Virus record (IMG/VR): IMGVR_UViG_3300045988_159010
Direction: 5' to 3' (one strand)
Source: a virus
DNA: 29,721 bases
In this document: positions 1 through 29,376 of the stretch, in pieces
How positions within the stretch are numbered: position 1 is the stretch's first letter
How the letters are laid out: each line of letters begins with the position of its first letter
Position numbers and translations under genes: made by a program
Notes under the pieces: generated by a model
The model's database searches: none
Told to the model about the DNA's origin: nothing
The model's input: only the letters and a program-made list of their open reading frames with translations

Positions 1-148
1 TGTAGAGTTTTTCTTCGAGTTCGCGGTAGAAGGCAGGCTGCCAAGGGCAGTTGAATGTAGTGGATAATTGCCATCTGCAATAATCAGTTTGAACATTGTT
101 CTTGTCAAGAAAACGGATTTCAGCATAGGGATTCCGTGCAGTTGCCAT
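1..148 (-). CDS. hypothetical protein, N-terminal part only (gene runs off the left edge)
   Basis: Minus-strand ORF whose ATG is at 148-146 (MATARNPYAEIRFLDKNNVQTDYCRWQLSTTFNC...). An AAGGA Shine-Dalgarno sits about 9 nt upstream, and it is co-directional with the three downstream minus-strand genes. Confidence 0.4.
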   Translation of the reverse strand, partial: MATARNPYAEIRFLDKNNVQTDYCRWQLSTTFNCPWQPAFYRELEEKLY

Positions 149-182
149 ATTGTATCATCCTTTCTATTGGAAGCCAAGGGTT

Positions 183-407
183 TTAACCCTTGGCTCTGTA
201 AGTTTCTTTGCCTTTCTCGAATGTGCTCATAACTTCACCAGTTTGCATATCAATGACATCTCTGTCATTCTTTGCCCATAGACTGTAAGCATGAGCCATG
301 GCTCGTGCTGCGGTTAGGCTGCGGTAGATTGTGCCATACTGACCAGTTGTGTGATTATAGATAGAGTACATGATGTTATCCCCTTTCTGATAGTCTGGTT
401 GAGCCAT
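183..407 (-). CDS. hypothetical protein (74 aa)
   Basis: Intact standard-code ORF on the minus strand with a TAA stop. Its start overlaps the stop of the upstream gene (TAATG), which suggests translational coupling. GC is visibly higher than in the rest of the window. Confidence 0.5.
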   Translation of the reverse strand: MAQPDYQKGDNIMYSIYNHTTGQYGTIYRSLTAARAMAHAYSLWAKNDRDVIDMQTGEVMSTFEKGKETYRAKG

Positions 408-742
408 TAGCTCAACCAGATCTGCTTACTTGTTGCGATAGACCAACGACGCCGACTTGCTGCCAGCCGTTCGACTTCCCACTTGACCCATTTAGAACAA
501 CCGCATTCGTCCATATCAGCGAAAATACGTTCCAGCTCCATATGGTCGCTCTTCATCGAGGATTCAGTGTAGTTTGCCTTAGCAATCTGCCGTGCAATAT
601 AGTCCTTCTGATCCAGCAGCTTGTGAAAGGTGGCTTCGCCATCAGGGTCAGAGAATTTGACCCTGTTCATGGCATCGTTGATGTGAAAGATGGTGTTCAT
701 CATAGCTTCCTTGCGTGCGATTCTTCTGTTGATACGGTTCAT
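407..742 (-). CDS. hypothetical protein (111 aa)
   Basis: Minus-strand ORF with a GGAGG Shine-Dalgarno 8 nt upstream of the ATG (GGAGGTATAACTATG on the minus strand), a TAA stop and no internal TAG. Confidence 0.55.
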   Translation of the reverse strand: MNRINRRIARKEAMMNTIFHINDAMNRVKFSDPDGEATFHKLLDQKDYIARQIAKANYTESSMKSDHMELERIFADMDECGCSKWVKWEVERLAASRRRWSIATSKQIWLS

Positions 743-795
743 AGTTATACCTCCATATAATGTTAGTTGGTTGTTAGGTGGATGGGTGAAGAAGC

Positions 796-1200
796 TTATG
801 CTTCTTCACCGTATAGTAGGTCGTGCAGTTTATAGAAGAAGTCTTCGAGCATATGTTCAAAGATATCCGCCCATTCCTCGGCCTCGTCTTGCAAGTCTGT
901 CAGCTTCTCATAGGCGGCCTCATATGCGATACATGGATTGCCAGTTTCCATATCCATGTTATAGTCCGTGTGCTCCAAGTCATATTCAGCACTATGAATA
1001 GCCCAAGTCAGGTTGTCCCACTGCGGGATATTCTTCGCCGCATATTCATGATACTTGTCCAGCATACCATCATAGTCGAAGCTATTGCCAAGCATATGGT
1101 ATTGCTTGACATATGCTATCAAGTCTTGTGCCTGTTCTGCTAACTCTGCTTTGATAGCTTTCTGTTTGTCCTGTTCGCTTGTTTTAATTGCATATACCAT
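796..1200 (-). CDS. hypothetical acidic protein (134 aa)
   Basis: Minus-strand ORF with a TAA stop. It is the first gene of a 4-gene leftward operon, and the long non-coding region 1201-1650 lies upstream of it. Confidence 0.55.
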   Translation of the reverse strand: MVYAIKTSEQDKQKAIKAELAEQAQDLIAYVKQYHMLGNSFDYDGMLDKYHEYAAKNIPQWDNLTWAIHSAEYDLEHTDYNMDMETGNPCIAYEAAYEKLTDLQDEAEEWADIFEHMLEDFFYKLHDLLYGEEA

Positions 1201-1650
1201 GATTTTACCAATCCTTTACATATTATTTGACTGTTAGTTGTCAGCTGTCCGTGGTGCTATCTGCCGTAGGCGATGGACTGCCCTACCGCTTGCACCGCAC
1301 TTTCCATGTTCTACCATTGCGTCCGCTATGCGGTGCAGACGCTCGGCTTAAATTCACTTGTCAATGTTCAACGCCGCTCGGTGCTTCGGCCTCTTTCCGG
1401 TCATTCTACTACACTTGCAAGGGCTTGCGTTGTTTGTTTTTCCCTTGCTTCGTTGTACTCATTGTACCATAGGATTTTCGGCTTGTCAAGAACTTTTTTC
1501 AAAATTTCTTGATTTTTTTTCGCTTGCTTGCGGCTTGCTTTGCGTTGTCCCGTGGTCAATTTCTGATTATAGAATAGCACCTATGCCCGAAAATGTCAAC
1601 TACTTTTTTTCAAAAATCGAAATATTTTTTTAGGGGGTTAGTCGTATCTA
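1201..1650. other. long GC-rich non-coding leader/regulatory region
   Basis: The only ORFs are overlapping, low-complexity ones in three frames with no RBS. There is a 9-bp perfect inverted repeat, TGCACCGCA at about 1296-1304 and TGCGGTGCA at about 1339-1347. GCTTGC-type short repeats occur at 1520-1545, and a 7-bp operator-like inverted repeat TCAAGAA...TTCTTGA at about 1487-1512. Confidence 0.4.
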
Positions 1651-1773
1651 ACTTGCTTCATTTGAATAAAGTAAGACAATAGACTTTAACATTTTAGTCA
1701 AGTGAAGTGGGGGGGCAGGGTTTCGTGTAAAAAAAATGGAAAAAATGGATAAATCTTCCTACCTGGCAAAATA

Positions 1774-1850
1774 ATTTCTAAAACCTTTTTTAATTTTAGA
1801 AATCGGAACAAATTTCTAAACTCATTTTTAATTTCAGAATACGGAATAAA
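1774..1850. repeat. two tandem ~38-bp direct repeats (AATTTCTAAA-N-TTTTTAATTTyAGAAwwCGGAAyAA); the first carries a perfect 10-bp inverted repeat (ATTTCTAAAA/TTTTAGAAAT)
   Basis: Unit 1 spans 1774-1811 and unit 2 spans 1812-1850, at roughly 85% identity by eye. In unit 1, 1774-1783 pairs perfectly with 1794-1803. Confidence 0.6.
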
Positions 1851-1865
1851 TTTATAAAAAAAATA

Positions 1866-1887
1866 AGCGGGAAAATATTTTCCCGCT
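1866..1887. terminator. bidirectional intrinsic terminator (perfect 22-nt palindrome AGCGGGAAAATATTTTCCCGCT)
   Basis: A perfect palindrome flanked by an A-run on the left and a T-run on the right. It is placed directly downstream of the minus-strand AbrB-like gene, whose stop is at 1921. Confidence 0.7.
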
Positions 1888-1920
1888 TTAATTTTATTCC
1901 TTAATTACTCGATATCCATT

Positions 1921-2121
1921 CTATTCCAATGTTTCTTTTGCAAGAGCTACGGCATCACTGGCTTCAGGACATTCAATACATAAAAAAGTCTTACCATCTA
2001 CTTCATCAATGTAAAATTCATAATTATGACCATTTACCATATGCAATTCTTCACGAAGTTTAGAAGGAATCATTAAACGTCCAACTGTATCAAGTTTTCT
2101 TGTATAAGCTGTTTTCAGCAT
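1921..2121 (-). CDS. AbrB/MazE/SpoVT-family transcriptional regulator (66 aa)
   Basis: The translation MLKTAYTRKLDTVGRLMIPSKLREELHMVNGHNYEFYID shows the characteristic VGRL-IP-xLRE looped-hinge motif of the SpoVT/AbrB swapped-hairpin fold. There is an AAAGGAG RBS and a consensus promoter upstream. The stop codon is TAG, with an in-frame TAA 9 codons further on. Confidence 0.75.
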   Translation of the reverse strand: MLKTAYTRKLDTVGRLMIPSKLREELHMVNGHNYEFYIDEVDGKTFLCIECPEASDAVALAKETLE

Positions 2122-2185
2122 TTTAACTCACTCCTTTCTTTTTAATTGGGAGAGTATGAGCCATCCCATAAATTTTTTATAATTC

Positions 2186-2214
2186 ATTTTACAAAATTTT
2201 TTGTTCTTTGTCAA
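2186..2214 (-). promoter_or_regulatory. sigma70/sigmaA-type promoter for the AbrB-like gene (TTGACA-N17-TAAAAT on the minus strand)
   Basis: On the plus strand, TGTCAA lies at 2209-2214 and ATTTTA at 2186-2191, with an exact 17-nt spacer. An AAAGGAGTGAG RBS precedes the ATG at 2121. Confidence 0.6.
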
Positions 2215-2243
2215 AATTTTTCTTAACAAAATCTTAACACGAA

Positions 2244-2705
2244 TTAATTAAAAGGAATAATACCTTCATTAGGGTCAATTACTCCTCGTTCTTGATGAAA
2301 GCGATAATTGACATATCCATTTTTAAATTTATAAACTTCTACTTCAGGTATAATATATTGATCTTCTTTATCTACAATTTTAGAACCAAGAGTAATACCA
2401 ATTGGGTCACCCTCTTCTTCATATTTAGATAAATCAATAGACATTAAATCTTTTTTATTTTTAATGACATGGACTATTCCAGGCCCAATATATTTTTCTT
2501 CTAGTCCTTTATTATATTCAATATATTTCTTATCGCTTTTAAAATTCATAAAATCTTCAAGGGCTTTAGTATAGTCTTTATAAAGCTTTGCTTCAATAAT
2601 TTTACCACAAATAAATCTGGCCGCACATCCTAATCCAAGTGCCGCACCACTACCTAAAAGAAGCCCATGGACAAACTTCATTAAATCACTTCCCTTAATT
2701 TTCAA
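2244..2705 (-). CDS. hypothetical secreted or membrane-anchored protein (153 aa; alternative SD-supported start at 2681)
   Basis: Intact minus-strand ORF with a TAA stop. The N-terminus (MKIKGSDLMKFVHGLLLGSGAALGLGCAA) looks like a signal peptide or lipoprotein-like leader. The internal ATG at 2681 has an AGGGAAG Shine-Dalgarno. Confidence 0.55.
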   Translation of the reverse strand: MKIKGSDLMKFVHGLLLGSGAALGLGCAARFICGKIIEAKLYKDYTKALEDFMNFKSDKKYIEYNKGLEEKYIGPGIVHVIKNKKDLMSIDLSKYEEEGDPIGITLGSKIVDKEDQYIIPEVEVYKFKNGYVNYRFHQERGVIDPNEGIIPFN

Positions 2706-2716
2706 ATATAATATAT

Positions 2717-2872
2717 TTACTTTTTCTTACGCTCTTTGGTAGGATTATAGGCTCCTTGCTGTTTAGGATTTTCACCCCACATAATTTGATAAACAGCTCT
2801 TGTTGCACTATTAGTTGCTCTACGTTTAGCCTTAGAAGCCATACTGCCTAAAATACCACGAGGTTTTCTCAT
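2717..2872 (-). CDS. small highly basic protein (51 aa: MRKPRGILGSMASKAKRRATNSATRAVYQIMWGENPKQQGAYNPTKERKKK)
   Basis: Absent from the ORF track because it is under 60 aa, but it has a perfect consensus promoter and an AAAGGAG RBS immediately upstream. It ends in TAA and is first in the leftward early operon. Confidence 0.45.
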   Translation of the reverse strand: MRKPRGILGSMASKAKRRATNSATRAVYQIMWGENPKQQGAYNPTKERKKK

Positions 2873-2901
2873 AAAATTATCTCCTTTAATTTTATATAAA
2901 T

Positions 2902-2930
2902 ATTATATAAAAAATTTTTATAATTGTCAA
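2902..2930 (-). promoter_or_regulatory. perfect-consensus sigma70/sigmaA promoter (TTGACA-N17-TATAAT) driving the leftward early operon
   Basis: On the plus strand, TGTCAA lies at 2925-2930 and ATTATA at 2902-2907, with an exact 17-nt spacer. Confidence 0.65.
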
Positions 2931-2984
2931 TTTTACATTTTACATAATTTTTTTACTAAATACCATAAAAATTTTTGGCCATGG

Positions 2985-3013
2985 TTGACTTTGCAAATTT
3001 TTTGTGTTATAAT
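2985..3013 (+). promoter_or_regulatory. sigma70/sigmaA promoter with extended -10 (TTGACT-N17-TGtTATAAT) driving the rightward early operon
   Basis: TTGACT lies at 2985-2990 and TATAAT at 3008-3013, with a TG at -15/-14. It is divergent from the promoter at 2902-2930. The 29-mer is nearly identical to the promoter at 19406-19434. Confidence 0.65.
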
Positions 3014-3041
3014 TTTTTTAGAAGGATTGGAGGTATTAATC

Positions 3042-4106
3042 TTGATAAAATTAGATTATACTCTTGAAACTCCTGAAGAACGAAATGAATTAGTAAAAAA
3101 AATTTTAGAGGAAAATCCAAATCCTAATGAAAAGTATTTAGAAATCCTCGCAGATTATCTAATTCTATGTATGGAGAAACAAGAAAAAAAAGAAAAGAAA
3201 ATATTAACTGATAATAGATTAATGACAGTTAATAAACGTGAAACTTCTTTCGAAGGTCTTGTTTCCCAGTTAGAGAATGGTGAAGATGGTATATATAATT
3301 TAATTAATAGTGATAAAAATATGATATTTTAGCCAAAAGTTACAATTACAAAAAAAGATTTAGAAGATATTCCGAGCTTAAAACAATTAAAAGACGCTAT
3401 TACAACTTGGGAAGCAAAAATGAAAGTAGTGAGTGGTAAAGATGCTTTCACTATAAAAAAAGCATTAATAGAAATGCGTAAAGACCAATATGTTATTAAA
3501 AATGCTTATCGGAAGCCAATAGTACCAGTAAAGCTTACACGGTCCAAATATAAAATTAAATTAGATGAAGATGTAAAAATATTTGATGATGATGGATATC
3601 CAATTCCAGAAGGCGTCTCATTGATGAACCCTGAAATTTGCTCTTGCATTTTATGCAATTATTCTCGATTAAAAGAAGATAGTTGGGACCGTTTTGAAGA
3701 TGATACTTGGTATCTCATCTATGATTTTGAAAATATTTGTGATGAAGCTTTGGCTGATTATCCTATGTTAATGCGTATTGTAGAATGTAAAATTGATGGA
3801 TTACAAAATATAGAGATTCAAAAAATTTTACAAGAAGAATTTAATATTACCCACAGTTTAGAATATATATCAAGTTTATTCCGCAATAAAATACCAAAAC
3901 TTATTGCCGATAAAGCTGTTGATAAATATTTAGAGTGGTATTATACAACTCAAGAAAAAGGCAAATATAAAAAATGCAGTCGATGTGGGCAAATTAAATT
4001 AGCTCACAATAAATATTTTTCCTATAACAAAACAAGTAAAGATGGATTTTATAGTATATGTAAAAAATGCCGAAATAGTTCTCGTAAAGAAAAAATAAAA
4101 TCCTAA
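3042..4106 (+). CDS. early protein with C-terminal CxxC...CKKC zinc ribbon; one internal in-frame TAG at 3330-3332 (otherwise two genes, 3042-3332 and 3420-4106)
   Basis: A TTG start sits 8 nt after GGAGG at 3029-3033. ORFs 2985-3332 and 3420-4106 share a frame, and the 29 codons between them contain no TAA or TGA. The ATG at 3420 lacks a convincing RBS. The stop is TAA at 4104-4106 with a TGA at 4122. Confidence 0.5.
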
Positions 4107-4124: not shown

Positions 4125-5339
4125 TTGTCCAGCGAAGGTAAACAATATTATTGTGAAAAATGTAATAAAACTATGGATGGCACTTAGTTTTATACATCTA
4201 ATAATTTAGATAAATATCCCAATGATGGTAAATTACCAAAATGTAAAAAATGTATAACAATGCATGTGGATAATTGGAATCCGGATACTTATCTATGGAT
4301 ATTGCAAGAATGTGATGTTCCTTATATTCCTGAATAGTGGAATTAGTTAATGGGTAAATTTGCAAAGGATAGAGCGAAAGTCACTGGAATGACAATATTA
4401 GGTCGCTATCTCTCTGCAATGAAATTAAATCAATGGAAAGATTATAGATGGAAAGATAGTCAATTCTTGCAAGATTTACAAAATAAAAAAATAGAAGAAA
4501 CAATGAAGCAATAGGGATATGATATTCAAGATATTACTACTGCTATTCAACGAGCTTCATTCTCTTTGCCATCAGAAGAATTAAAAGAGCCGCCTCCTCC
4601 CGCGCCTCCTCCCTTAGATTTTGGGAATTCTGGGGAAGATTATTTTAAAGATAAATTAGATTTTGATGTTCCTGACTTAGGCGCAGAACTGACAGACGAA
4701 GATAAACGATATCTTTATTTAAAATGGGGAAAAGGTTATAGCCCTGATGAATGGGTGCGCTTAGAGCAATTATTTAATGAAATGATGTAGTCTTACGATA
4801 TTTAGTCTGCAGGCCATATTGATACATTAAAACTTGCCTGTAAGACATCATTAAAATCTAATTAGTTATTAGATATAGGTGATGTAGACGGCGCACAAAA
4901 GATGATTAAAATGTATGATTCTTTAATGAAGTCGGGCAAATTTACTGCCGCCTAGAATAAAGAAGAGTCTGGCGATTTCATTGATTCTGTTGGTGAATTA
5001 ATAGAAATGTGTGAGAAACAAGGTTATATCGAAAGATATTACATTGATACTCCAAATGATAAAGTAGATTTTACAATTAAAGATATGCAAAAATACACAC
5101 GCACTTTAATTGAACGAGAAACTAATCTTGGCAATATGATTGATTAGGCATTAAAACAAAACGCTAAAGAAGATGAATAGGCCAAAGAAAACGTCGAAGA
5201 TACAATTGTTGATGATGTTGATATGTCTATTGAAGATATTGAAAAAACTTTGGAAGATAAAGATATCGAAGACTTTGGCGAATTTTTAGATAATGAGACA
5301 GAGTTAGATATAGATGCTTTCTCTGATAGAGAAAATTAA
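4125..5339 (+). CDS. TAG-containing protein (404 aa) with N-terminal CxxC...CKKC zinc ribbon, a proline run and an acidic C-terminus; possible small terminase subunit by position
   Basis: I verified the frame codon by codon: 10 in-frame TAG and no TAA/TGA until the TAA at 5337-5339. A TTG start follows an AAAGGAG RBS. The stop overlaps the TerL ATG (TAATG). The function is inferred from synteny only. Confidence 0.55.
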
Positions 5340-7178: not shown

Positions 7179-7535
7179 ATGGATGCCAGTCGTGCGGAAA
7201 TTAAGATTAGAGAAATCTTAGAGGAAGCCGGCCTGAATTTTAAGATGGAATATATATTTCCAGATTTAAAAACACATAATGGTCGTCCTTTACGTTTTGA
7301 TTTTGTCATATTTGATGATGATAATAATATTGATTTTTTAATTGAATATCAAGGGAAATAGCATTATGAAGCTAGTAATAAATTTGGCGGAAAACGTGGA
7401 TTATATCAATAGCAATATAATGATAATCAAAAACGTAGATTCTGTGCTTTACATGATTTACATTTAATAGAAATTCCTTATACAGAAGAAAATTTAATTT
7501 CTTATGATTATATAATGCGAAAAGCTGGATATTAA
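7179..7535 (+). CDS. DUF559/Vsr-like PD-(D/E)xK endonuclease-fold protein (118 aa), possibly a homing-endonuclease-like insert
   Basis: It has an AGAAAGGAG RBS, 2 in-frame TAG and a TAA stop. The motif RFDFVIFDDDNNIDFLIEYQGKQHY...KRRFCALHDLHLIEIPY matches the DUF559 signature (hhDFhh...IEhDGxxH ... R...L...G..hhRh). Confidence 0.5.
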
Positions 7536-12774: not shown

Positions 12775-12809
12775 TTGATATTAACTAAAAATTAATATAT
12801 AATATTTTT

Positions 12810-17866: not shown

Positions 17867-18031
17867 ATGATTATTAGCTCTAATGCTCCACGACCTGTTA
17901 AAGCATCTGAAGTAGAAAAAGTTATAGTTAAAAAATCAAAAAAAGAAAATAAAAATTCTCAAGAAAAAGAGAATAAAATTCCTCTTACAGAGGATGAACT
18001 TATTGATAAGATTATTAAAGGAGAGGGTTAA
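17867..18031 (+). CDS. small Lys-rich ORF (54 aa)
   Basis: The ATG lies 2 nt after the upstream TAA. There is no TAG, and the TAA at 18029-18031 is embedded in the terminator hairpin. Confidence 0.4.
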   Translation: MIISSNAPRPVKASEVEKVIVKKSKKENKNSQEKENKIPLTEDELIDKIIKGEG

Positions 18032-18049
18032 TCCCTCTCCTTTTTTTTT
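18020..18049 (+). terminator. intrinsic terminator (GGAGAGGG-TTAAT-CCCTCTCC followed by T9)
   Basis: A perfect 8-bp GC-rich stem (18020-18027 / 18033-40) is followed by a 9-T run. Confidence 0.8.
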
Positions 18050-18075: not shown

Positions 18076-19395
18076 ATGGCAAAATTAACAAATGCCTAGA
18101 AAAATTAGTTAGTTTATTATAAACAAAAAGGAGTTTCTTATAAAAATGAAGTAAATACTCCTACTTATTTAAGTAGTCTTTTAGAAGTATATAGAGCTGC
18201 TGCTCGACCAAATGATACAATTGCTAATAAAGAAGTTTAGGATGCTAAATTATTAGAAAAAGTTTTAAATGGAATAAAGTAGATTCAAAATAATTATACT
18301 AAAAAAATGTCTTTTTCTACTGAATCTTTAATAGAGATTGTTTAGGATTAGGCTTTAGCTGAATTACTTAATTAGTTATATACGGTAAATCCTGGATTAT
18401 TTATTGGAGGAGGTTTAATTAAAAAAGGAGCAAATAGCTATGAACGTGGTGCCTTATTAGAGAATTTTATGAATGAATTTATTACTACTATTGACTATAC
18501 TTTTTAGAATATGGAAATGCCTTATGGTCCTTTACCGTAGACTCATCGGTCTGGCCAATTAGTTGATAATATTAATATGAAAAATTTAATTACTAATATT
18601 GGTGGAGAGTTTATAGATAGCACTACAAAAACTGCAATAAATAATTTGTCTCGGTTTATTTATAAAGTTGGATAGGAAAAAAAAGATTCAGGTAATACTA
18701 CAACTGAACGTCGAAAAAATAATTTAGAAGCTACTACTATTTATACTCAAGTTAAAGAAAATGGTCGAGTTGGAGCTATTTAGGGCAAATAGATAAAAGC
18801 TGATAACACTGGTTTAAATTATAGTATTTCAATTACTGCTACAGCGACACTGTTAAATCAAGTAGTTAATGCCTTATCGATGGCTACATTCAGCGATAAA
18901 AATTATTTATCAACAGATTTTATAGGTTTAGGTAAAACTAATCCTTATCGTGTTTTTTTAACTGTGGCTGATGGAGATACAGGTTATAAATTATATAGAT
19001 ATGCTCGTATGTTAAATTGTATGGCAAAGCATTCTAAATTAGCAGAACATAATGATGTGCCTAAAATGTTTTTTAGAATTAGAGCTATTTATGAATTGAC
19101 TGGTGCTAAACAACAAGTTGGAAATACTAAGTATGCTTATTAGAGTGTAATGGCTAATTTTATTAATGATATTGGTCGTACTAAATTTTTAGTTATTAAT
19201 AATCCTAAAAAGCAAGGTTTTTTAAAAGTTTTATCAACAGCTAAATTAGCAGAAGATATAGAAATGAATTTATATTTTAATAAAAAACAAGGTTCTAGAA
19301 GTATTTTAGAAAATGATGAAAGAAGAATGTCTATGGAGCAAGCTCTATATGGTCCTATTAGTATGAATTTCAGTAAAATTTTTGAAGATTAGTAA
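18076..19395 (+). CDS. hypothetical tail-region protein (439 aa)
   Basis: It has an AAGGAG RBS. I verified the frame: about 13 in-frame TAG. It ends ...GAA GAT TAG TAA, that is, a TAG directly followed by a TAA. Confidence 0.55.
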
Positions 19396-19434: not shown

Positions 19435-19511
19435 ATATTTATAAAGGATAAAAATTAAAAAATTTGTTTCTGACAAAATTTTTAAAATATAAAGTTAAAG
19501 GAAGTGAGAAT

Positions 19512-20039
19512 GTGGCGAAAATAGCTTTTACAAAACTCTCTCTCCAGAAAAATTCAGAAATAAGAAATTGGCAATATAATGATCAAATTATTGAAGTAAA
19601 ATAGTATCTTCCAATAAAAGAGAGAATGGATATTGCTTAGTCGGTCATTCAACAAGTCATTGATTTTAATAATGAATTTTTGAATGAATTTGCTTTCCAT
19701 ATGTATATGGATTTAGCAATAGTATTTAATTATACAAATTTATCTTTTACTGATAAACAGAAAGAAGATTTGTATAAACTTTATGATTTACTTGTTGGTT
19801 CAAGGTTTATAAAAGAGTTAAAGAAACAAGTAAATTGTAATCAAATTGATGATTTAGAAGTCTATACTTATGAAATGCTTAATGGATATTATAAATATCA
19901 TAATAGTGTTTATGGGATTATGGATGCTATGAATCAGAATTATTCTAATTTAAATTTAGATGTTAATGAATTACAAGATAAGATTTCTAATCCTGAAAGT
20001 CTATCTTTAGTAAAAGATATTTTAACCAAGATGGGTTAA
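19512..20039 (+). CDS. possible tail assembly chaperone (175 aa; minimal standard-code version 19680-20039)
   Basis: A GTG start follows AAAGGAAGTGAG. There are 2 in-frame TAG and no TAA/TGA across the 56 codons upstream of the ATG at 19680. The gene sits immediately upstream of the tape measure and is bounded by its own promoter and terminator. The function is inferred from position only. Confidence 0.45.
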
Positions 20040-20081
20040 AATATCATAATTGATTTCTAATTTAAATAGGAATATTAAAAG

Positions 20082-20113
20082 GCGAGAGGCTTTGTTCCTC
20101 TCGCTTTTTCTTT
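20082..20113 (+). terminator. intrinsic terminator (GCGAGAGG-CTTTGTT-CCTCTCGC followed by TTTTTCTTT)
   Basis: A perfect 8-bp stem (20082-20089 / 20097-20104) is followed by a T-run. Confidence 0.8.
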
Positions 20114-20151: not shown

Positions 20152-23100
20152 ATGGCTAATAACAGTGCTAATTATAATGTTAATATGCGATTTACAGCTG
20201 ATACAGGTCAGGCTAAATAGCAATTACGAGATTTACAAAGTTCATTAGATACTTTAATGAATTAGATAGCAACAAAAAATATTAAATTTTTTGATGTTAA
20301 TGCCACTAAAAAAGAAATAGATGAAGCCTCGGCAGCAGTTTAGGAGTTAAAAATTGCTTTAGATTAGGCGACTAATGTTAATACTGGACGTTTAGATTTA
20401 TCAAAATTTTCAAAGAGTTTAAGTTAGAGTGGCTATACTCTTTAGGATTTTGCTACACATTTAGAGAATCTAGGTCCAACAGGTGATAAAGCATTTGTTG
20501 CGTTAGCATAGTCTGTTATTAATGCTGAAGTTCCTTTAAAAAGAACTAATGCTTTATTAGATAATTTTAAAAAAACATTAGCTAATACAGCCAAATGGCA
20601 AATTTCATCTAATTTAATGCATGGAGTATAGGGTTCTTTATAGAAAGCTTATTATTATGCAAAAGATTTAGATAAATCATTAAACGATATTCGTATAGTT
20701 ACTGGATAGAGTAGCGATCAAATGGCTTAGTTTGCTGAAAAGGCAAATAAGGCTGCTCAAGCATTAAGTACAACTACTACTAATTATACTAATGCTTCTT
20801 TAATTTATTATCAATAGGGTTTAAGTGATAAAGAAGTTGCTGATCGTACTGAAGTTACTATTAAAATGGCGAATGCAGCAGGTGAAAGTGCTTCTAAAGT
20901 ATCCGATTAGTTAACTGCTATTTGGAATAACTTCTATGATGGGAGTAAATCTCTTGAGTATTATGCAGATGTAATGACTAAACTTGGTGCATATACTGCT
21001 TCTAGTACTGATGAAATCTCAGAAGGTGTATAGAAATTCGCATCTGTTGCTAATACTATTGGTCTTAGTTATGAATATGCTACATCTGCATTAGCTACAT
21101 TAACTGCTAAAACACGTGAAAGTGCGAACACAGTAGGTAATAGCCTTAAAACTTTATTCGCTCGTATTTAGGGTTTGACTCTCGGAGAAACTCTTGAAGA
21201 TGGTACTGATTTAAATAAATATTCTAAAGCCCTTGAAAAAGTTGGTATTAGTATTAAAGACCAATAGGGTGAGTTAAAAGATATGAATACTATCCTTGAT
21301 GAAATGATGAATAAGTGGGATAGTTTAAGTCGTGCTGAACAAGTGGCTCTTGCATAGACTGTTGGTGGTGTTCGTCAATATACTCAATTAGTTAATCTTA
21401 TGGAAAATAAAGATTATTTTAAAGAGTTAGTTGGAGTGGCTAAAAATTCTGAAGGTACTTTACAAGAACAAGCTGATATTTATGCTGAAAGTTGGGAAGC
21501 TTCTAAGAAGCGAGTACAAGCTTCTCTGGAAGAAATTTATAAGCAATTAGTTAATGATAAATTTTTTATTGGATTAAATGATACATTAAGTGATACATTA
21601 AATATTACAAGTAAATTAATTGATTCATTAGGTGGATTACCTGGCGTATTAAGTGTCATTTCTACTTTAATGTTAAAGAGTTTCGGTCCTGATATTGTAA
21701 ATAACATGCAGCGTATGGCTTCTAACTTGTTTATTGATAGCGGAGCTGCTGAAAATTAGGCTGCGGTTATGAAAAAAGCGATGATTTAGACATTACAATC
21801 TTTCTCGCCTGAATCTAAAATGGAATTATCAGATTAGGGTTCTGTCACATTAGAAACTACTACAATGATTAATGCAGCTTAGGCATCTTATGATTTATAG
21901 ATAGCTAATAGTCAATTAAATGAAACAGATAAATTAAGACTTTAGACTTTACTAAAAATTTCTTAGGTTTATGGAGATATCGCTGTATAGGCTAAAAGAA
22001 GTATTGAAGTCCAGCAGCAGTAGACTTAGAATAATTTACGAGATGCAAGAAATTAGATTTTTCTTACTACTAATGAAAATTTTGGTGGAGAAACTGGCGT
22101 AAAATATTTTGATAAAAATTATAAAGCTGGACAAAAATTAATTGATAGTTTTTATAATAATAAGGTTTTAAAATAGTTAAATTCTTAGAAATTTGATAAT
22201 AGTGATTCTTATTAGAATTTTTTGGCTAAATTTGATAATATTAAAGGATTAAATACTGATTAGAGATTTGACAAATTAAATCAATTATTAAATAAAGCTA
22301 AAGGAGCTTCTAATAAGCCAAGTAATATTTAGTCTCGATATAGAAATTAGATTATAGAAGAAATAAATAATTTAAAAGATGTTAATGTAGTTTTAGATAA
22401 ATATGTAAACAATAAAGCTAGTGCCGATGGAGCAACTAGAAAATAGATTGAAGCATTACGTCAATGTTTAAATGGGTATGTAAAAGAAAAAGAAGCTTTA
22501 ATACAAAGTAATAATGCCAATAAAAAATATACAGACTCAATAAATGATTTCGAGAAAACTTTGGCAAAAAGTCAAGGAGCCGTTATGACTTTTTCTTAGG
22601 GATTGGTTTCGGGCGCGTAGGGAATCTCTTAGTTGGCTATTGGTATTAATAGTATCCATGGTGCTATATAGGCTTTAAATAGCGAAGATTTAACCTTTGG
22701 TGAAAAAGTATTTTAGATGACTACATCGCTATCTATAGCGATTCCTTCTATTATAAATGGTTTTACTAATTTACAAAAAAGTATATAGAGCATTAATAGT
22801 AGTAAAGGATTAATTGGAACAAATATTTTATAGTTAGTTACTGGGTTAAATGAAATTAAAGAGGCAAATTTAGGCGCTGAATTATAGAAATTAAGTGCAG
22901 CCAGCAATACTTCTGGTTTAAGGTTTAAAGCTTTAAAAGCTATGACTGATGCTTATAATACTAGCATGGAAGGAGCTAAAGTTGGAGCTAATGGATTAAC
23001 TAAAGCTATGGCTGAATAGGCGGCTGGTACTGCAGCTTTAAAGGCTGGTATTAAAGCTGTGGCTGGATCTTTAGGCATTTATATAGCCATCGCTGCGGCG

Positions 23101-26100
23101 ATAGCTGCAATTATTGCAGTTATAGTCCATTTAAATGAAGTAGCAAAAACTAAAACTTTAGAATCTTAGTTAGCTCGTTCTGAAGAGGCTGCTGCAAATT
23201 TTGAAAAACAATTAGAAAAAACAAAATCTAAAGCTGAAGAATTAAAAAATGTTTTTAATAATTATAAAAATATTAAAAAATCTTTAGATGAATGTACTAT
23301 AGGAACAGAAGAATGGCGAAAGAAACTTCAAGAGACTAATGAAACAGCACTAGAAATATTAAAAAATTATCCAGAATTAAAAAATATTGAAGGCGCTTGG
23401 GGTAAAAAAGACACAGGAGAAATTTGGATTGATGAATCGGCGCTAAAGGGTTTACAATCTGAATATGATAATAAAATTTTATCTCAGTCTTATAATTTAG
23501 CTAGACAAAATTAGAATAGTAATGAACTTAAAAATGCTATAGCTTGGAAAAATAATTTTAATGATATAACTTTATCTTATGGAGCTACTTTTAATGATTT
23601 AGAAGGTTCTTATCGTCCTGAAAAAGATGAAAGAACTTTTAATGCTTTAGAATATATTAGAAATAATTTCTAGAATTATAAAGGTTATTCGGATGATTTA
23701 ATTCTTAAGGATATTTACTCTTATTTAAATAAAGAGGGATATAATAATATTGAAGGTTAGGCCTATTAGGAAAAATTAACTTAGTTTATAAATGAAATTA
23801 ATCCTACTTTATAGTCTTTGATTTCTACCATAGAAGAAAATACAGATGCTACTTTGCAAGCGGAGCAAGAAAGTGTTGTCCAATAGAAATTAGGCAAAAC
23901 TAATATGTCTTCTCAAGAAGTTAAATTAACCACAGAAGCTTATAACAATGCCATTGAAGATAAAATAGCTGAAATGAAAAAAGCAACTAGCATTTGGGAT
24001 GGCAAATGGAATGGAACAATAACTTATGATGGACTAGAAATTGGTACTCATGGTGAAAATGCTCGTAACAGCCAATAGGTTAAAGATTTATGGGATGTAT
24101 ATTTAAAATCATAGGGTATTGATATAAATGATAGTGATTATAGACTAAATTAGCAAAATTCTGTAAAAGGTAAAGGACAAGATAGATATTTTGTTTATGG
24201 CCAAGACTAGAAAGTTTCTTTTGAAGAAGTTATTTAGGCAGTTGCTTAGTATGAAGTGGATTAGGGTAATTTCTTAACTGAATTAAATTAGGCAGCTACA
24301 AATTTTTTAACTAATCTTGGAAAAATTCAATACACTGATGAAACTAAGTAGAAAATTGAATCTGGAGGAACTTTAGGAAAAGGTTTAAGCAGTTTTATTG
24401 GTAATAAGGATTTAACTGAATTAACTTAGGAAGAAATAGATAATTTAGGAGAATTAACTGAGGATACTTTAAAAGAGCGTGTAGCTGCTGCTATGGGATT
24501 TGATTATGCTAAAGCTACTAAAGAATAGTTAGCTGAATTAGATGATTAGCTAATAGCTATTTATGGGGCTGTTGGAGTTGATTCCGGAGAAGAATTTGTT
24601 GAATAGTTTAATACAGCTATTATAAATTATGGAAAAGAAACAGAGAAAATTGCTAATTCATTTTATGGTAAATGGGCTACAGCAGAAAATCTAAATTCAT
24701 TTACTTTAGAGGTACAAAAAAAATTAAAATCTACTTTTGTAGATGTTTTTAGAGTAAGTGGAGAAGAAGGAATTGCTGTCTTTAAAGAAATAATATCTAA
24801 ATACGGATCTGATTTAACTCCAGAATTATTAGATTTAATTGGAGATTTTGATTGGACTTAGAGTGGAGCTATTGATAATTTTATATCAGCTTTAGAAGAT
24901 TTAGGTATTTTAACTGATGATAATACTGAAGCCTGGAAAAGATTTTCTAGTCAAATGGCTGAAGCAGCTAATAATTTACCGATAGATAAATTAACTAATT
25001 TACGAGATATTTTAGAAGATATATACAAATTATTAGGTAAAGATGTTGGTTCAATTTTTTCTTAGGAAGATATTGATAAATTAACATTAGGCGGATATGA
25101 TATTGAAGGGCATTATGCTCAAGTTGGTTCAGACGAATATGTTAAAACTAGAGATTATACTACTGAAGAAAAAAATAAAGCTTATGAACAACAAATTCAA
25201 ACTGCTAAGAAAAAAAATGAAATAATTTATGGTGCTAATGATTATAATTAGGCCTAGGTACAATCTAAAGTAGATAGTTGGGGAAAATATGGTGACAAGT
25301 ACATTTCAGGAGAATGGGATAACTTAAGTTCTTCTTATGTAAAGAGTTATATTGACAGCATTGGAGGTATTGAAAATGCTGCTACTATAACTGGATGGGA
25401 TTAGGATAATTTTTCTGATGAATATTTAAATAGTATAACTTCTTAGGAACGTGCTGAAATTGTTGATGCAATAGTAAAGGGAATTAATAGTGTTTATAAT
25501 GGACAAACTGATACTGGTGTTATAACTACTTCTCATTTATATAATAGTTCAGACTCTATAAATGAAATGACTTAGATGGAAGGGTTCCGTGATGAAGAGG
25601 GATCTGTATCAGATTCTGGAATTGAAGCTATTAGTGGAAAATTAGCCGGGTCAGAGGAAGGTTTAGAATTATTACATAAATATTAGGATGAAATAAAAAA
25701 TGTCACTAAAGGTACTGAAGAATGGGATAAAATAACTAATCAATTCATTAAAGATAGTCAAGGTTTAGAATATAAAGAATAGGCAAAAGAATTAGGAAAT
25801 TATAATGATAAATTAAAAGAAGCAAAAAAAGCTGGCGAAGATTATGAAGAAGAACTAGGTAATGTAAGAAAATAGCTCAATAAAATGCTTGATATCGAGG
25901 TAGATGATGATTTCATTGAAGAATATCAAGATTAGATTGATAAAATGCTTAGTGGTAAGACATTAGAAGAACGCCAAAGTGCCGCTAATACAATTAAATT
26001 CTAGGCTGAATTAGATAAAGAAGATATTGAATCTAAAATACCTGATGAACTTTAGAATGAAATTATGCCTATGTTATAGAATAATTTGCCTAAATTAGAA

Positions 26101-29100
26101 CTAGACGCTGAGGGAAAAATTGTAATGACTGGCGATAGTGGCCAAGCTGTAGCTGCCATCGGATAGGTAATAGCAGCTTTATAGGCTGCCGGTGTTCCTG
26201 CTGAAAGTATAGCTGAAATTTTAAGAAGCGTTTTGGGTACTGATATAACTATTAGCGGAGATGGTATAGAATAGTTTGCTGAATTAGCCAAAGCTCTAAC
26301 TTCAGGAGATTTAGAAGCTATTGCCAAGTGGTCTGAAACTTATAATGATGGTAAAGATCTTTTAAATTTAAGTGGTTCTGGCCGTACGGCTAATGTTACT
26401 CCTAATTATGCTTATGAAAATGGTGGTTCTAAAGGCGGCGGAGGCGGTGGAGGTAAATCTACTAAATCTGCTAATGATATTGGCAAAGAAATTCAAGATG
26501 AGAAATTAAAAACTTATGAAAAGAAACGTGAATTATTAGAAGCTAAACGTGATGGAGCTAATCCAGAAGATGCTGCTAAATATATTCAAGAAGAAATTGA
26601 TTTACTTGAAGAAGAACAAGATATTCTTGAAGATTAGATTAAATCTTGGAAAAAGTTATTAAAAGTTAAAGTAGAAGAATTTAATAAAGATCACCCAGAG
26701 TTTGAAATAAAACTTACTGATGATGGTGAAATTGCCAATGCATCTGAATTATGGGGCAAAGTTTGGGCGCAATATCAAAAAAATCTTGAAGATGGTATGA
26801 GTGAAGAAGACCTAAATGAATGGTTTACTAAAATTAAAGACAGTCTTGATGGTCCTATGGGTATTCAATAGAATATTGATGAAAATGTTGCTCTCATTGC
26901 TTAGAAAGAAAAAGAAGCTGCTGAACTTGAACTTGAAGCTATTACAAAATAGATTGACTGGAAAGTTAAGTAGATTGATTTTTAGATTAAACGTCTTAAC
27001 TATTATCAAGAAAAACTTCTTAAATAGGCTCATGGTAATAAATAGACTATTGAAGCAATGCTTGAAGGATTTGCTTACCAAGAGCAAGAAATGCTATAGC
27101 TCTTTGATAAAGGCGCCACATTACGCTAGGGCATTGATTAGTTAAATGCTGCGAAAGCTAAATATCCAGGTTATGAGTAGATGTTTGATGAACAAATACT
27201 TGAATACCAAAGTGATTTAATTGATGTTAATGAGGCTATTCTAGACTTACGTAATGATATTGAAGATTTGGTCTAGAACGTTTTAGATTTGGCACTTGAT
27301 GAAATTGATAAGTAGATAGAACGTCTTGATACTTATACATCAATGCTTGACCATCTTAATAATATTATTGATTTATCTGGTCGTTCAATGCTTGATATGG
27401 GATTAAAAACTTAGATTGGTGCTACTAAAGTAGAAACAATGTTAGGTAAAATGAAATCCTTAAAAGGTCAAATGGATGGTTTAACTAAAGCTACTAAAGA
27501 AGCATAGGCCGCGCTTGCTGATCGTTAGGCTGATGGAGATACATCTTCCGTAAAATTCTGGGAAAACCAAGTTGAAGTATTGAAACAAGAAACTGAAAAA
27601 GCTTCTGATGAATTTTTAGCTTCTTGGGAAGAAACTCTTGAAGCAGCTCAGGATTTATTTGAAATGCGTGTTGAAATGGCAGTTAATATATTAAGTAATG
27701 CTTTATCACCGTTTGAAACTCTTGAAGATTTCCAAGATAAATATGAAAAGGCAAAAACTATTAATGAGCAATACCTTGATGATGCTGACCGTTTATATGA
27801 GTTGAATAAATTAAATCGTTAGCTAAATTTATAGCTAGCTGATGCTAATGACCTTTTAGCTAAACAAAAACTTAGAGACATTTAGCAAGAGATTCACGAT
27901 CTTTAGGCCGATGGCGTCCAGATGAGCCAGTATGACCTTGAATACTTATAGAAAAAATATGATCTACAGCTTGCTGAGATCGCTCTTATGGAGCAGTAGA
28001 ATTCAAAAACTTCAATGCGTTTAGTGCGTGATGCCGCGGGTAATTGGACTTATGCTTATGATGCAGATGAAGAAAAAATTGAAGACGCCACATAGAAATA
28101 TGAAGATGCGGTTCATGAATTAGGTAAGTTAAGTAAGGATTATATTAATGATGTAAGTGAATAGTTAATTTAGAATCAAATTGATTTTAAAGAAGCCTTA
28201 CAAGATCTTGATAAAAACTCTGCGGATTATTCAAATCAGCTATTATCATTGCAAGAGTATTATGTTGAAAGACAAAGATATTTACTTGATGAATTAAATA
28301 AAGGTGTTGTAAATAGTGGATTAACATTCCATGATACTCTCTACGGCCAAATGACTGATTTGTATGATTATAATGATGCTTATATGTTATTTGTTAATAA
28401 TTCTAATACTACAATTAGTGAATTACAAACCAATTATAAAGATTGGCAAAAAGTTGTTGAAGCAGCAATGAACGTTGCTGGTACATCTTGGGAAACTTTC
28501 GGTTCTGATATGGGCGGCACTCTTGATAGTCTTGAAGAACATATTCAAAAATTATGTGATGAAATTGAAGAACTTGTTAATGTATTAATGGGCTATATTT
28601 CTTAGTCTATTGGAATGGTTCTTGATTGGGAATAGAAATATTCTAAGCGAACTGATGAAGAATTAGCTAAAAATGAATAGTATATTGATGGTAACTTTGG
28701 TAGTAGTGGTAGCGGCGGATTAACTTATGATATTGGTGTTGATTATAGTGCTGCTATAATTTCTTTAAGTAAAAATGGTGGTACTTATACAGATGAAAGT
28801 GGCCGTACTTGGACTACTGATGACATCAAAACTTTGAAAGATATCCGTAATTTAAAATTATCTGATATGGAATAGGAAGGTTCATAGATTTTAAAGAATG
28901 GTTCTTCTACTGATTATTGGTCTGAAGAAGAAAAGAAAGAAATTACAACTAATAAAAATGCAGAATGGTTAGATAAAGTTTTAGGAAATGGTGCAGCTTC
29001 TGGTGCCTATACAGGCAATTGGGCTAAAGGACAAGGTTTCGGACCTGATAATGGTAGAATTATTAAAGTTCATCCTAAAGAATTAATTCTTAACCAAAAA

Positions 29101-29376
29101 GATACTTCTAATATACTTCGTGCAGTTGATATTGTTCGTAATATGAATGATTGGGTTGATAAACAAGTACAATCAATGATTAATTTTGGATAGATAAAAT
29201 TAGGTAATTTGATTGATAAAACTACTCCACCTGTTTATGAAACTTAGCCAATTAAGCAAGAAGTTACTATTCAAGCAGACTTCCCAGGAGTTACTGATCA
29301 TTATGAAATTGAAGAAGCATTGTCTAATCTTAGTAATAATGCGGCTCAATATATAAGTGCAAATAAATCTAAATGA
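20152..29376 (+). CDS. tail tape measure protein, TP901-family core (about 3074 aa) with about 115 in-frame TAG codons
   Basis: It has a GAAAGGAG RBS. I read every codon of frame 1 from 20152 and found no TAA/TGA until the TGA at 29374-29376. The region 20700-21760 matches the conserved TP901-type tape measure core (...AEKANKAAQALSTTTTNYTNASLIYY..., ...LTAKTRESANTVGNSLKTLFARI..., ...GELKDMNTILDEMMNKWDSLSRAEQVALA...). There is a hydrophobic transmembrane-like segment (GIYIAIAAAIAAIIAVIVHL, about 23070-23140), extensive coiled-coil repeats and a Gly run (GGSKGGGGGGGK, about 26425). Confidence 0.85.

Follow-up and report, generated by a model that had tools for sequence, protein, structure and literature searches.

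Conserved promoters of the housekeeping sigma type in an amber-recoded, SPbeta-like gut siphophage and their predicted use by the host polymerase

The 29,721 nucleotides (nt) of viral DNA analysed here (IMG/VR record IMGVR_UViG_3300045988_159010; this whole stretch is called the window) contain between positions 2902 and 3013 two divergent sequences that look like promoters of a bacterial housekeeping sigma factor, and further sites of this kind lie at 2186 and 19406. The genes to the right read the stop codon TAG as a sense codon, and the locus raises the questions which RNA polymerase recognizes these sites, which host provides it and why the 29-mers at 2985 and 19406 are almost the same. 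We consider it likely that all four sites are housekeeping sigma-A promoters for the host RNA polymerase in a SPbeta-like gut siphophage of about 189 kb that decodes TAG as glutamine (Gln), that the most probable host belongs to the Bacillota and has a low guanine-cytosine (GC) content, and that the two 29-mers are alike through a promoter grammar shared by the whole family.

An earlier note on this DNA, made from the sequence alone, had described the four sites (P2902, P2186, P2985 and P19406, named after their position; Table 1) as matches to the sigma-A/sigma-70 consensus with exact 17-nt spacers, some of them being perfect or carrying an extended -10 element. Coordinates and spacers were borne out both by reading the sequence and by a consensus scan: the hexamers match at 12/12, 11/12, 11/12 and 11/12 positions, the spacer is exactly 17 nt at 4/4 sites of the window and at nearly all orthologous sites in relatives, P2902 is the perfect one and P2985 as well as P19406 carry TGn. 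A loose consensus scan of the whole window resulted in 102 sites with 100.8 expected, which is chance level, and the argument is therefore carried by the near-perfect class (at least 11/12). From this class the window holds eight sites versus 2.2 +/- 1.5 expected from 200 dinucleotide-preserving shuffles, and three of the eight bear a TG where 0.1 would be expected. Intergenic DNA makes up 6.8% of the window, yet it holds six of these eight sites, each oriented toward a gene. The leaders between promoters and start codons measure 28–77 nt, and 10 of the 12 copies of AAAATTTTT tracts fall in three promoter regions of the window.

For a comparison across the family we compiled 47 related loci from genome bins together with loci from IMG/VR and ENA (cited below by L numbers), located the homologue of each window gene in every locus and scored a promoter as present if a site of at least 11/12 was found within 150 nt upstream of the homologue. 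A promoter stands ahead of the homologue of g01, the gene served by P2985, in 82% of 33 distinct relatives, and ahead of the homologue of g18, the gene served by P19406, in 74% of 27 distinct relatives, compared with 0–2% of relatives for 16 other scorable virion genes and 16% for g09. Among these relatives, protein identity falls to as little as 41% for g01 and 29% for g18. At closer range, P2902 is kept in four close relatives, no position between 2980 and 3050 varies in four relatives with 90–96% identity elsewhere, and in the relative locus L005 P19406 forms a perfectly conserved island inside diverged intergenic DNA. Judged by sequence and position, all four are genuine promoters of the housekeeping sigma-A/sigma-70 type and have been conserved in evolution. 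On the same grounds we conclude that P19406, which sits in the gap between g17 and g18, 77 nt ahead of the GTG start, is an old, position-specific element of a cassette composed of promoter, g18 and terminator. A hairpin followed by a T-run is present between the g18 and tape-measure homologues in 28/28 relatives examined, with a sequence that differs from genome to genome and an energy of -16 to -27.6 kcal/mol in 27 of them and of -12.9 in one.

The near-identity of the 29-mers at 2985 and 19406 had been reported as a difference at two positions, which is correct: 27/29 positions are identical, the differences being C/G at position 10 and G/T at position 20, and the identity covers 15/17 spacer positions. 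A search for more copies, which the note had proposed, found only these two in the window at up to three mismatches (0 expected from 100 shuffles) and, with a relaxed pattern, only two per genome in close IMG/VR relatives. The view that P19406 marks a second insertion of the same type of transcription unit did not hold, as both promoters are located at orthologous positions in about 30 relatives and the units are unrelated, namely g01 plus packaging and head genes behind P2985 versus monocistronic g18 behind P19406. The spacers vary between relatives yet keep one pattern, with the family consensus TTGACatTnnaaAAAtTTTtTGgTATAAT and a grammar that reads TTGAC(A/T), a 17-nt A-tract/T-tract spacer of the form nnnnaAAAAtTTTt, TGn and TATAAT. 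Even g01 and g18 promoters taken from different genomes, i.e. non-orthologous pairs, share 19.7 +/- 3.0 of 29 positions, and beyond the subclade of the window the two promoters within one genome share only 14–23/29. The 27/29 identity thus appears to reflect largely this family-wide grammar. That P19406 is instead a recent copy of P2985, or the reverse, by duplication, insertion of a transcription-unit cassette or gene conversion, is unlikely, even if it would agree with the extent of the identity including the spacer, with a paralogous identity of 24–27 within the subclade, above the family mean, and with the fact that the pair is more alike than the g01 promoter and its next-clade orthologue (22/29). 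Each promoter is found at its own position in relatives with only 30–75% protein identity, the flanks, the leaders (28 nt versus 77 nt) and the downstream genes are all unrelated, and no repeat reaches past the promoter itself. Moreover, both retain traits of their own lineage, the g01 promoters TTGACTTTGC...GTG, as in L060, L065 and L084, and the g18 promoters TTGACTTTG[AG]AAAA.

With regard to the polymerase, we see at the level of sequence no difference between the sites of the window and the sigma-A promoters of low-GC Gram-positive bacteria. They resemble these promoters and those of the corresponding phages in TTGACA, TATAAT, the spacing of 17 nt and the TGn or TGTGn that precedes the -10, and also in the AT-rich A-tract/T-tract DNA in and upstream of the promoter and the strong AGGAGG site downstream. 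The -16 'TRTG' element is typical of Gram-positive promoters, and a consensus -35 plus an extended -10 needs no activator. From the sequence of the sites we infer that the host sigma-A holoenzyme would start unaided at all four of them. The leftward promoters would then give early standard-code proteins, with P2902 starting the leftward genes, P2985 would serve g01 and probably also the downstream packaging and head genes, and P19406 would serve g18 alone, because the terminator at 20077 would halt the host polymerase. The arrangement to the left is the one that would be expected of an early region read by the host polymerase: the 9 kb beyond the window contain nine further leftward promoters of at least 11/12, four of them perfect and many with TGTGn, each standing ahead of a small standard-code gene. 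Alternatively, the promoters might be read by a factor specified by the phage in an autoregulated late circuit, the candidate being g01, which matches PHROG 5767 ('sigma factor'; this identity was not confirmed). We give little credence to this possibility, since the hexamers are the exact housekeeping consensus and the same promoter type precedes about a dozen small standard-code early genes. In addition, most recoded relatives have TAGs within the frame of g01, at codon 97 (Gln in 13 relatives) and elsewhere. The full-length product of g01 therefore depends on amber suppression, so that it could not be made before the code switch.

As had been proposed before, the most probable host is a low-GC bacterium of the Bacillota (Firmicutes). 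Indirect support comes from the strong Shine-Dalgarno usage and the consensus sigma-A promoters, from the Yon/Yom families of Bacillus phage SPbeta, from cultured relatives infecting Bacillota and from the synteny and promoter of Enterococcus phage EF1 (see below). The cultured phages with a similar capsid protein all infect Bacillota (Enterococcus, Staphylococcus, Mammaliicoccus, Bacillus or Clostridioides); a megablast search with 25 kb of the window against the phage collection gave no match. In agreement with the earlier argument that Bacteroidetes use neither of the two signals, the literature describes these bacteria as lacking Shine-Dalgarno usage and having promoters of the type TAnnTTTG (PMC6847099, PMC7797042, PMC3155529), so a Bacteroidetes host is unlikely. 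A Firmicutes-like host is not, as the note had it, unusual for TAG-recoded phages: Firmicutes and Bacteroidetes hosts have been predicted for alternatively coded clades and a TAG-recoded prophage has been shown in an Oscillospiraceae genome (Borges et al., bioRxiv 10.1101/2021.08.26.457843), and the TAG-recoded phage phAss-1 is predicted to infect Clostridia (PMC10607447). Among the 47 bins of metagenome-assembled genomes (MAGs) that hold relatives, 36 are labelled Bacillota or Mollicutes; the other labels include Bacteroidota (Bacteroidales, Prevotella), Treponema, Gastranaerophilales, Collinsella, Succinivibrio and Methanobrevibacter. Scanning genomes for relatives detected only phage-sized MAG-binned contigs and no integration or prophage junction. 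A host outside the Bacillota (Bacteroidota, Spirochaetota or Melainabacteria, all of which occur among the MAG bins) would fit the non-Bacillota labels of 11/47 bins and the use of sigma-70-type promoters and Shine-Dalgarno sites also outside this phylum, but it is the least probable alternative, as the binned contigs are phage-sized and lack an integration junction, Bacteroidota use neither signal, the cultured relatives all grow on Bacillota with the virion gene families being those of Bacillota phages, and the closest match, at 98% capsid identity, lies in a bin labelled low-GC Mollicutes.

Some points weigh against our reading of host, polymerase and promoter likeness. With labels such as Bacteroidales, Prevotella, Treponema, Gastranaerophilales or Methanobrevibacter on some of the bins, binning is weak and unreliable evidence of a host, and neither TTGACA/TATAAT promoters nor Shine-Dalgarno use is confined to Bacillota. 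The promoter pair of the window's subclade shares 26–27/29 positions, about 2.4 standard deviations above the family norm and above the 22/29 of the next-clade g01 orthologue, so that some homogenisation or convergence of the two promoters may have taken place inside this subclade. Furthermore, the host polymerase may not be the sole polymerase acting on the virion module.

The phage itself could be placed through its capsid protein, the exact sequence of which recurs on a scaffold of 189,494 bp (ERZ5855809, scaffold_9); this scaffold comes from a metagenome of the human gut sampled in Peru and bears both 29-mers. Precomputed Pfam matches of this source scaffold belong to the Yon/Yom families of SPbeta (YonG_N, YonD_N, YonB, YomW, YomV and YomU, in SPbeta gene order), and the window is part of a human-gut, SPbeta-like, amber-recoded siphophage scaffold of about 189 kb. 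Strong Shine-Dalgarno sites, claimed to be near-universal, precede 23/26 genes (88%) versus 1.3% of random positions, where strong means an anti-Shine-Dalgarno pairing energy (dG) of -8 kcal/mol or below within 20 nt of the start codon; typically the site reads AGGAG(G) and lies 7–10 nt ahead of the start codon. If TAG is read as sense, the coverage by open reading frames (ORFs) rises from 14.7 kb to 36.4 kb, a 3074-aa ORF with 115 TAGs emerges and, from 3042 onward, the plus-strand genes form a contiguous series up to the right end of the window. The aligned genes contain 201 TAG codons, with neither TGA nor TAA in frame, and TAG is aligned with Gln of standard-code relatives at 40% of 889 positions versus a Gln background of 4.3%. 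Therefore, the window is assigned by alignment to code 15 with TAG read as glutamine. A tRNA search found none in the window nor in 12 related loci (about 170 kb around the virion module), so a suppressor tRNA(CUA) was not seen there. The capsid-defined lineage (loci L059–L105) mixes three codes, most members being TAG-recoded, some TGA-recoded (L079, L083, L086, L089, L102 and L105) and others, including L060, L069, L085, L091 and EF1, using the standard code. TAG-recoded, TGA-recoded and standard-code members all carry these promoters, which therefore track lineage and host machinery and not the genetic code.

The nearest described relative is phAss-1 from the proposed 'Phassvirus' group (Babkin et al. 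2023, PMC10607447), also a siphovirus of the human gut with TAG-recoded virion genes and a tape-measure protein of about 3100 aa, which shares the capsid family at 48.8% identity. It differs in showing no nucleotide-level match and in its genome size of 136 kb compared with about 189 kb here, and in the stretch of phAss-1 examined tblastn detected homologues of neither g01 nor g18. The paper on phAss-1 does not mention promoters (PMC10607447). The EF1 group (MF001358 and relatives, cultured on Enterococcus faecalis and E. faecium) provides a positive control with a known host: its module from g01 to the tape-measure gene is collinear at 20–52% protein identity, and a 12/12 promoter with TG is located 43 nt upstream of the g01 homologue. 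In contrast to the window, EF1 uses the standard code without in-frame TAG, has no g17-like gene and shows no strong promoter before its g18 homologue, with a terminator after the tube gene instead. SPbeta shares the YonG, YonD, YonB, YomW, YomV and YomU families in the same gene order. Its late operon is transcribed as a whole by its own polymerase YonO from a start upstream of yonK (PMC5467207), and it differs in having no consensus sigma-A promoters at the corresponding positions. No YonO homologue was detected by tblastn in phAss-1 or EF1. The clades of Borges et al. (bioRxiv 10.1101/2021.08.26.457843) are similar in having standard-code early genes beside TAG-recoded structural genes, Firmicutes hosts for some, and code-15, code-4 and standard-code members within one lineage, as found here; that study contains no promoter analysis (bioRxiv 10.1101/2021.08.26.457843).

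Table 1. Predicted promoters, terminators and genes of the window (positions in nt of the window).
Feature	Coordinates	Strand	Description
P2902	2930..2902	-	TTGACA-17-TATAAT, 12/12, spacer ATTATAAAAATTTTTTA; serves gL1
P2186	2214..2186	-	TTGACA-17-TAAAAT, 11/12; serves gL3 (AbrB/MazE-like)
P2985	2985..3013	+	TTGACT-17-TATAAT, 11/12, TGTGn (-16/extended -10); serves g01
P19406	19406..19434	+	TTGACT-17-TATAAT, 11/12, TGn; internal; serves g18 via 77-nt leader
Promoter upstream of early gene gL4	1461..1489	-	TTGACA-17-TACAAT with TG; gL4 = 1200..796
Weaker candidate promoter, gap between capsid gene and g09	12775..12803	+	TTGATA-17-TATAAT; kept in only 16% of relatives
gL1	2717..2872	-	51-aa basic protein, without TAG; first leftward gene
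gL3	1921..2121	-	AbrB/MazE/MraZ-like small DNA-binding protein
g01	3042..4106	+	354 aa, TTG start, GGAGG at 3029-3033, one in-frame TAG at 3330-3332
Terminator after tube gene block, upstream of g17	18017..18043	+	intrinsic, 11-bp stem
g17	18076-19395		variable gene, 14 TAGs, without family match
g18	19512..20039	+	175 aa, GTG start, 2 TAGs; conserved; between g17 and tape-measure gene
Terminator closing g18 unit	20077..20109	+	intrinsic, 13-bp stem with 6 GC pairs, then T-run
g19, tape-measure protein	20152..29376	+	3074 aa, 115 in-frame TAGs, PF10145

The divergent control region (2873-3041) separates leftward early genes in the standard code from the rightward recoded virion module headed by g01. 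On its left side, the ATG of gL1 at 2872 lies 29 nt past the -10 of P2902 and has an AGGAG Shine-Dalgarno site, and on its right side P2985 ends 28 nt ahead of the TTG start of g01. A composition break coincides with this region: the early block (window 1-1800 plus about 9.2 kb further left in L107) consists of small, intact, standard-code ORFs and has 34–45% GC and, over most of its extent, only 3–8 TAG per kb on the coding strand, compared with 28–33% GC and typically about 20–36 TAG per kb over most of the virion module. The leftward set consists of gL1, gL2, gL3 and a block of 45% GC, all without internal TAG, and small standard-code leftward genes run on for at least 9 kb beyond the left end of the window. 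We rejected the possibility that the left end of 45% GC stems from a chimeric assembly or a host flank, since this block runs without a break into the phage module both in three IMG/VR relatives and in four independent assemblies. A repeated unit was observed in the early region (L107, window coordinates -9141 to -2732), where a consensus promoter, often with TGTGn, is followed by a near-identical leader (..caaaaggaaaggaaWtgataMMATG) in front of successive small genes. Between the promoter at 1489..1461 and gL4 there is a relatively GC-rich leader of about 255 nt (1201-1460, minus strand) without Rfam match, whose fold was not better than that of shuffled sequences (z = -1.6). Rfam searches with gathering thresholds on the whole window and with E <= 1 on 1-3100 gave no meaningful match, the sole matches being sub-threshold ones on a terminator at 1865-1888. 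Operator-like repeats were sought in 1850-3060, resulting in AT-rich low-complexity matches only. In an unrelated group of IMG/VR contigs (L016, L018, L020, L028, L029, L035, L036, L039, L040, L042, L046, L053, L054, L056 and L058) we found a TTGACTTTGCAAA...TATAAT promoter embedded in CTTTGCAAA / ACTTTGCAAACACAAAGT repeats, which resemble operators overlapping a promoter.

The rightward genes follow in the order g01, YonG-like gene, large terminase subunit, HNH endonuclease, portal, YonD-like gene, major capsid protein (YonB family), YomW-, YomV- and YomU-like tail proteins, the variable g17, g18 and the tape-measure protein. The first product, that of g01, consists of a helical body and, at the C-terminus, a zinc ribbon. 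Similar CxxC...CxxC zinc-ribbon motifs occur at the end of g01 (4040-4106) and at the start of g02 (4125-4260), and over 43 aa the C-terminus of g01 can be aligned at 39.5% with the N-terminus of SPbeta YonG (E = 0.002). The HNH/homing-endonuclease gene g04 (7179-7535) is located directly 3' of the terminase gene; in EF1 an annotated intron with an HNH endonuclease inside it interrupts the terminase homologue (L106 5681-8717). The gene g17 in the slot between tube gene and g18 is hypervariable among relatives, the identity falling from 97% to 50% and then becoming undetectable, and it is absent from EF1.

For g18 itself the predicted structure is confident (predicted local distance difference test, pLDDT, 82), and it gave no significant match in the PDB, while the sequence had no Pfam or NCBIfam match in the local libraries. 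That g18 might be a tail-assembly chaperone is an idea taken from the gene position alone. In the leader of g18 (19449-19483) an inverted repeat made up of A and T only, TTAAAAAATTT-N8-12-AAATTTTTTAA, is conserved around a variable centre, and the same inverted repeat is present in the orthologous g18 leaders of L005, L010, L011, L019, L038 and L059. As an RNA hairpin it is not more stable than shuffled sequences (z = -0.3), so that the repeat, if functional, may be a binding site at the DNA level.

With activator-free host promoters directly ahead of genes interrupted by TAG (one TAG in g01, 10 in g02, 14 in the terminase gene and two in g18), it is conceivable, even if rather doubtful, that the timing of virion expression in recoded members is set mainly at translation. 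If this were true, transcripts would be made from the start of infection and full-length proteins only after expression of an amber suppressor. The terminators at 18017 and 20077 would then bar the host polymerase from the tape-measure gene, and the promoter-g18-terminator cassette would be a host-polymerase island in a module otherwise read by a terminator-insensitive activity.

In summary, sigma-A promoters and Shine-Dalgarno sites are expected and ordinary in a phage of the Firmicutes type, for which such a host has already been predicted in the literature, and what the promoter map of the family and the conserved cassette around g18 add to a known kind of phage is tidy but modest. The results suggest a host at the phylum level, Bacillota, for an abundant uncultured lineage of gut phages of about 190 kb (the capsid search gave more than 7,500 related proteins), which is based on sequence and was checked against a cultured relative. 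Furthermore, they provide a concrete map of the start and stop points expected for the host polymerase in the virion module. As a lineage of mixed codes with the same promoter layout, these phages might serve as a natural series for asking whether stop-codon recoding brakes the translation of late genes.
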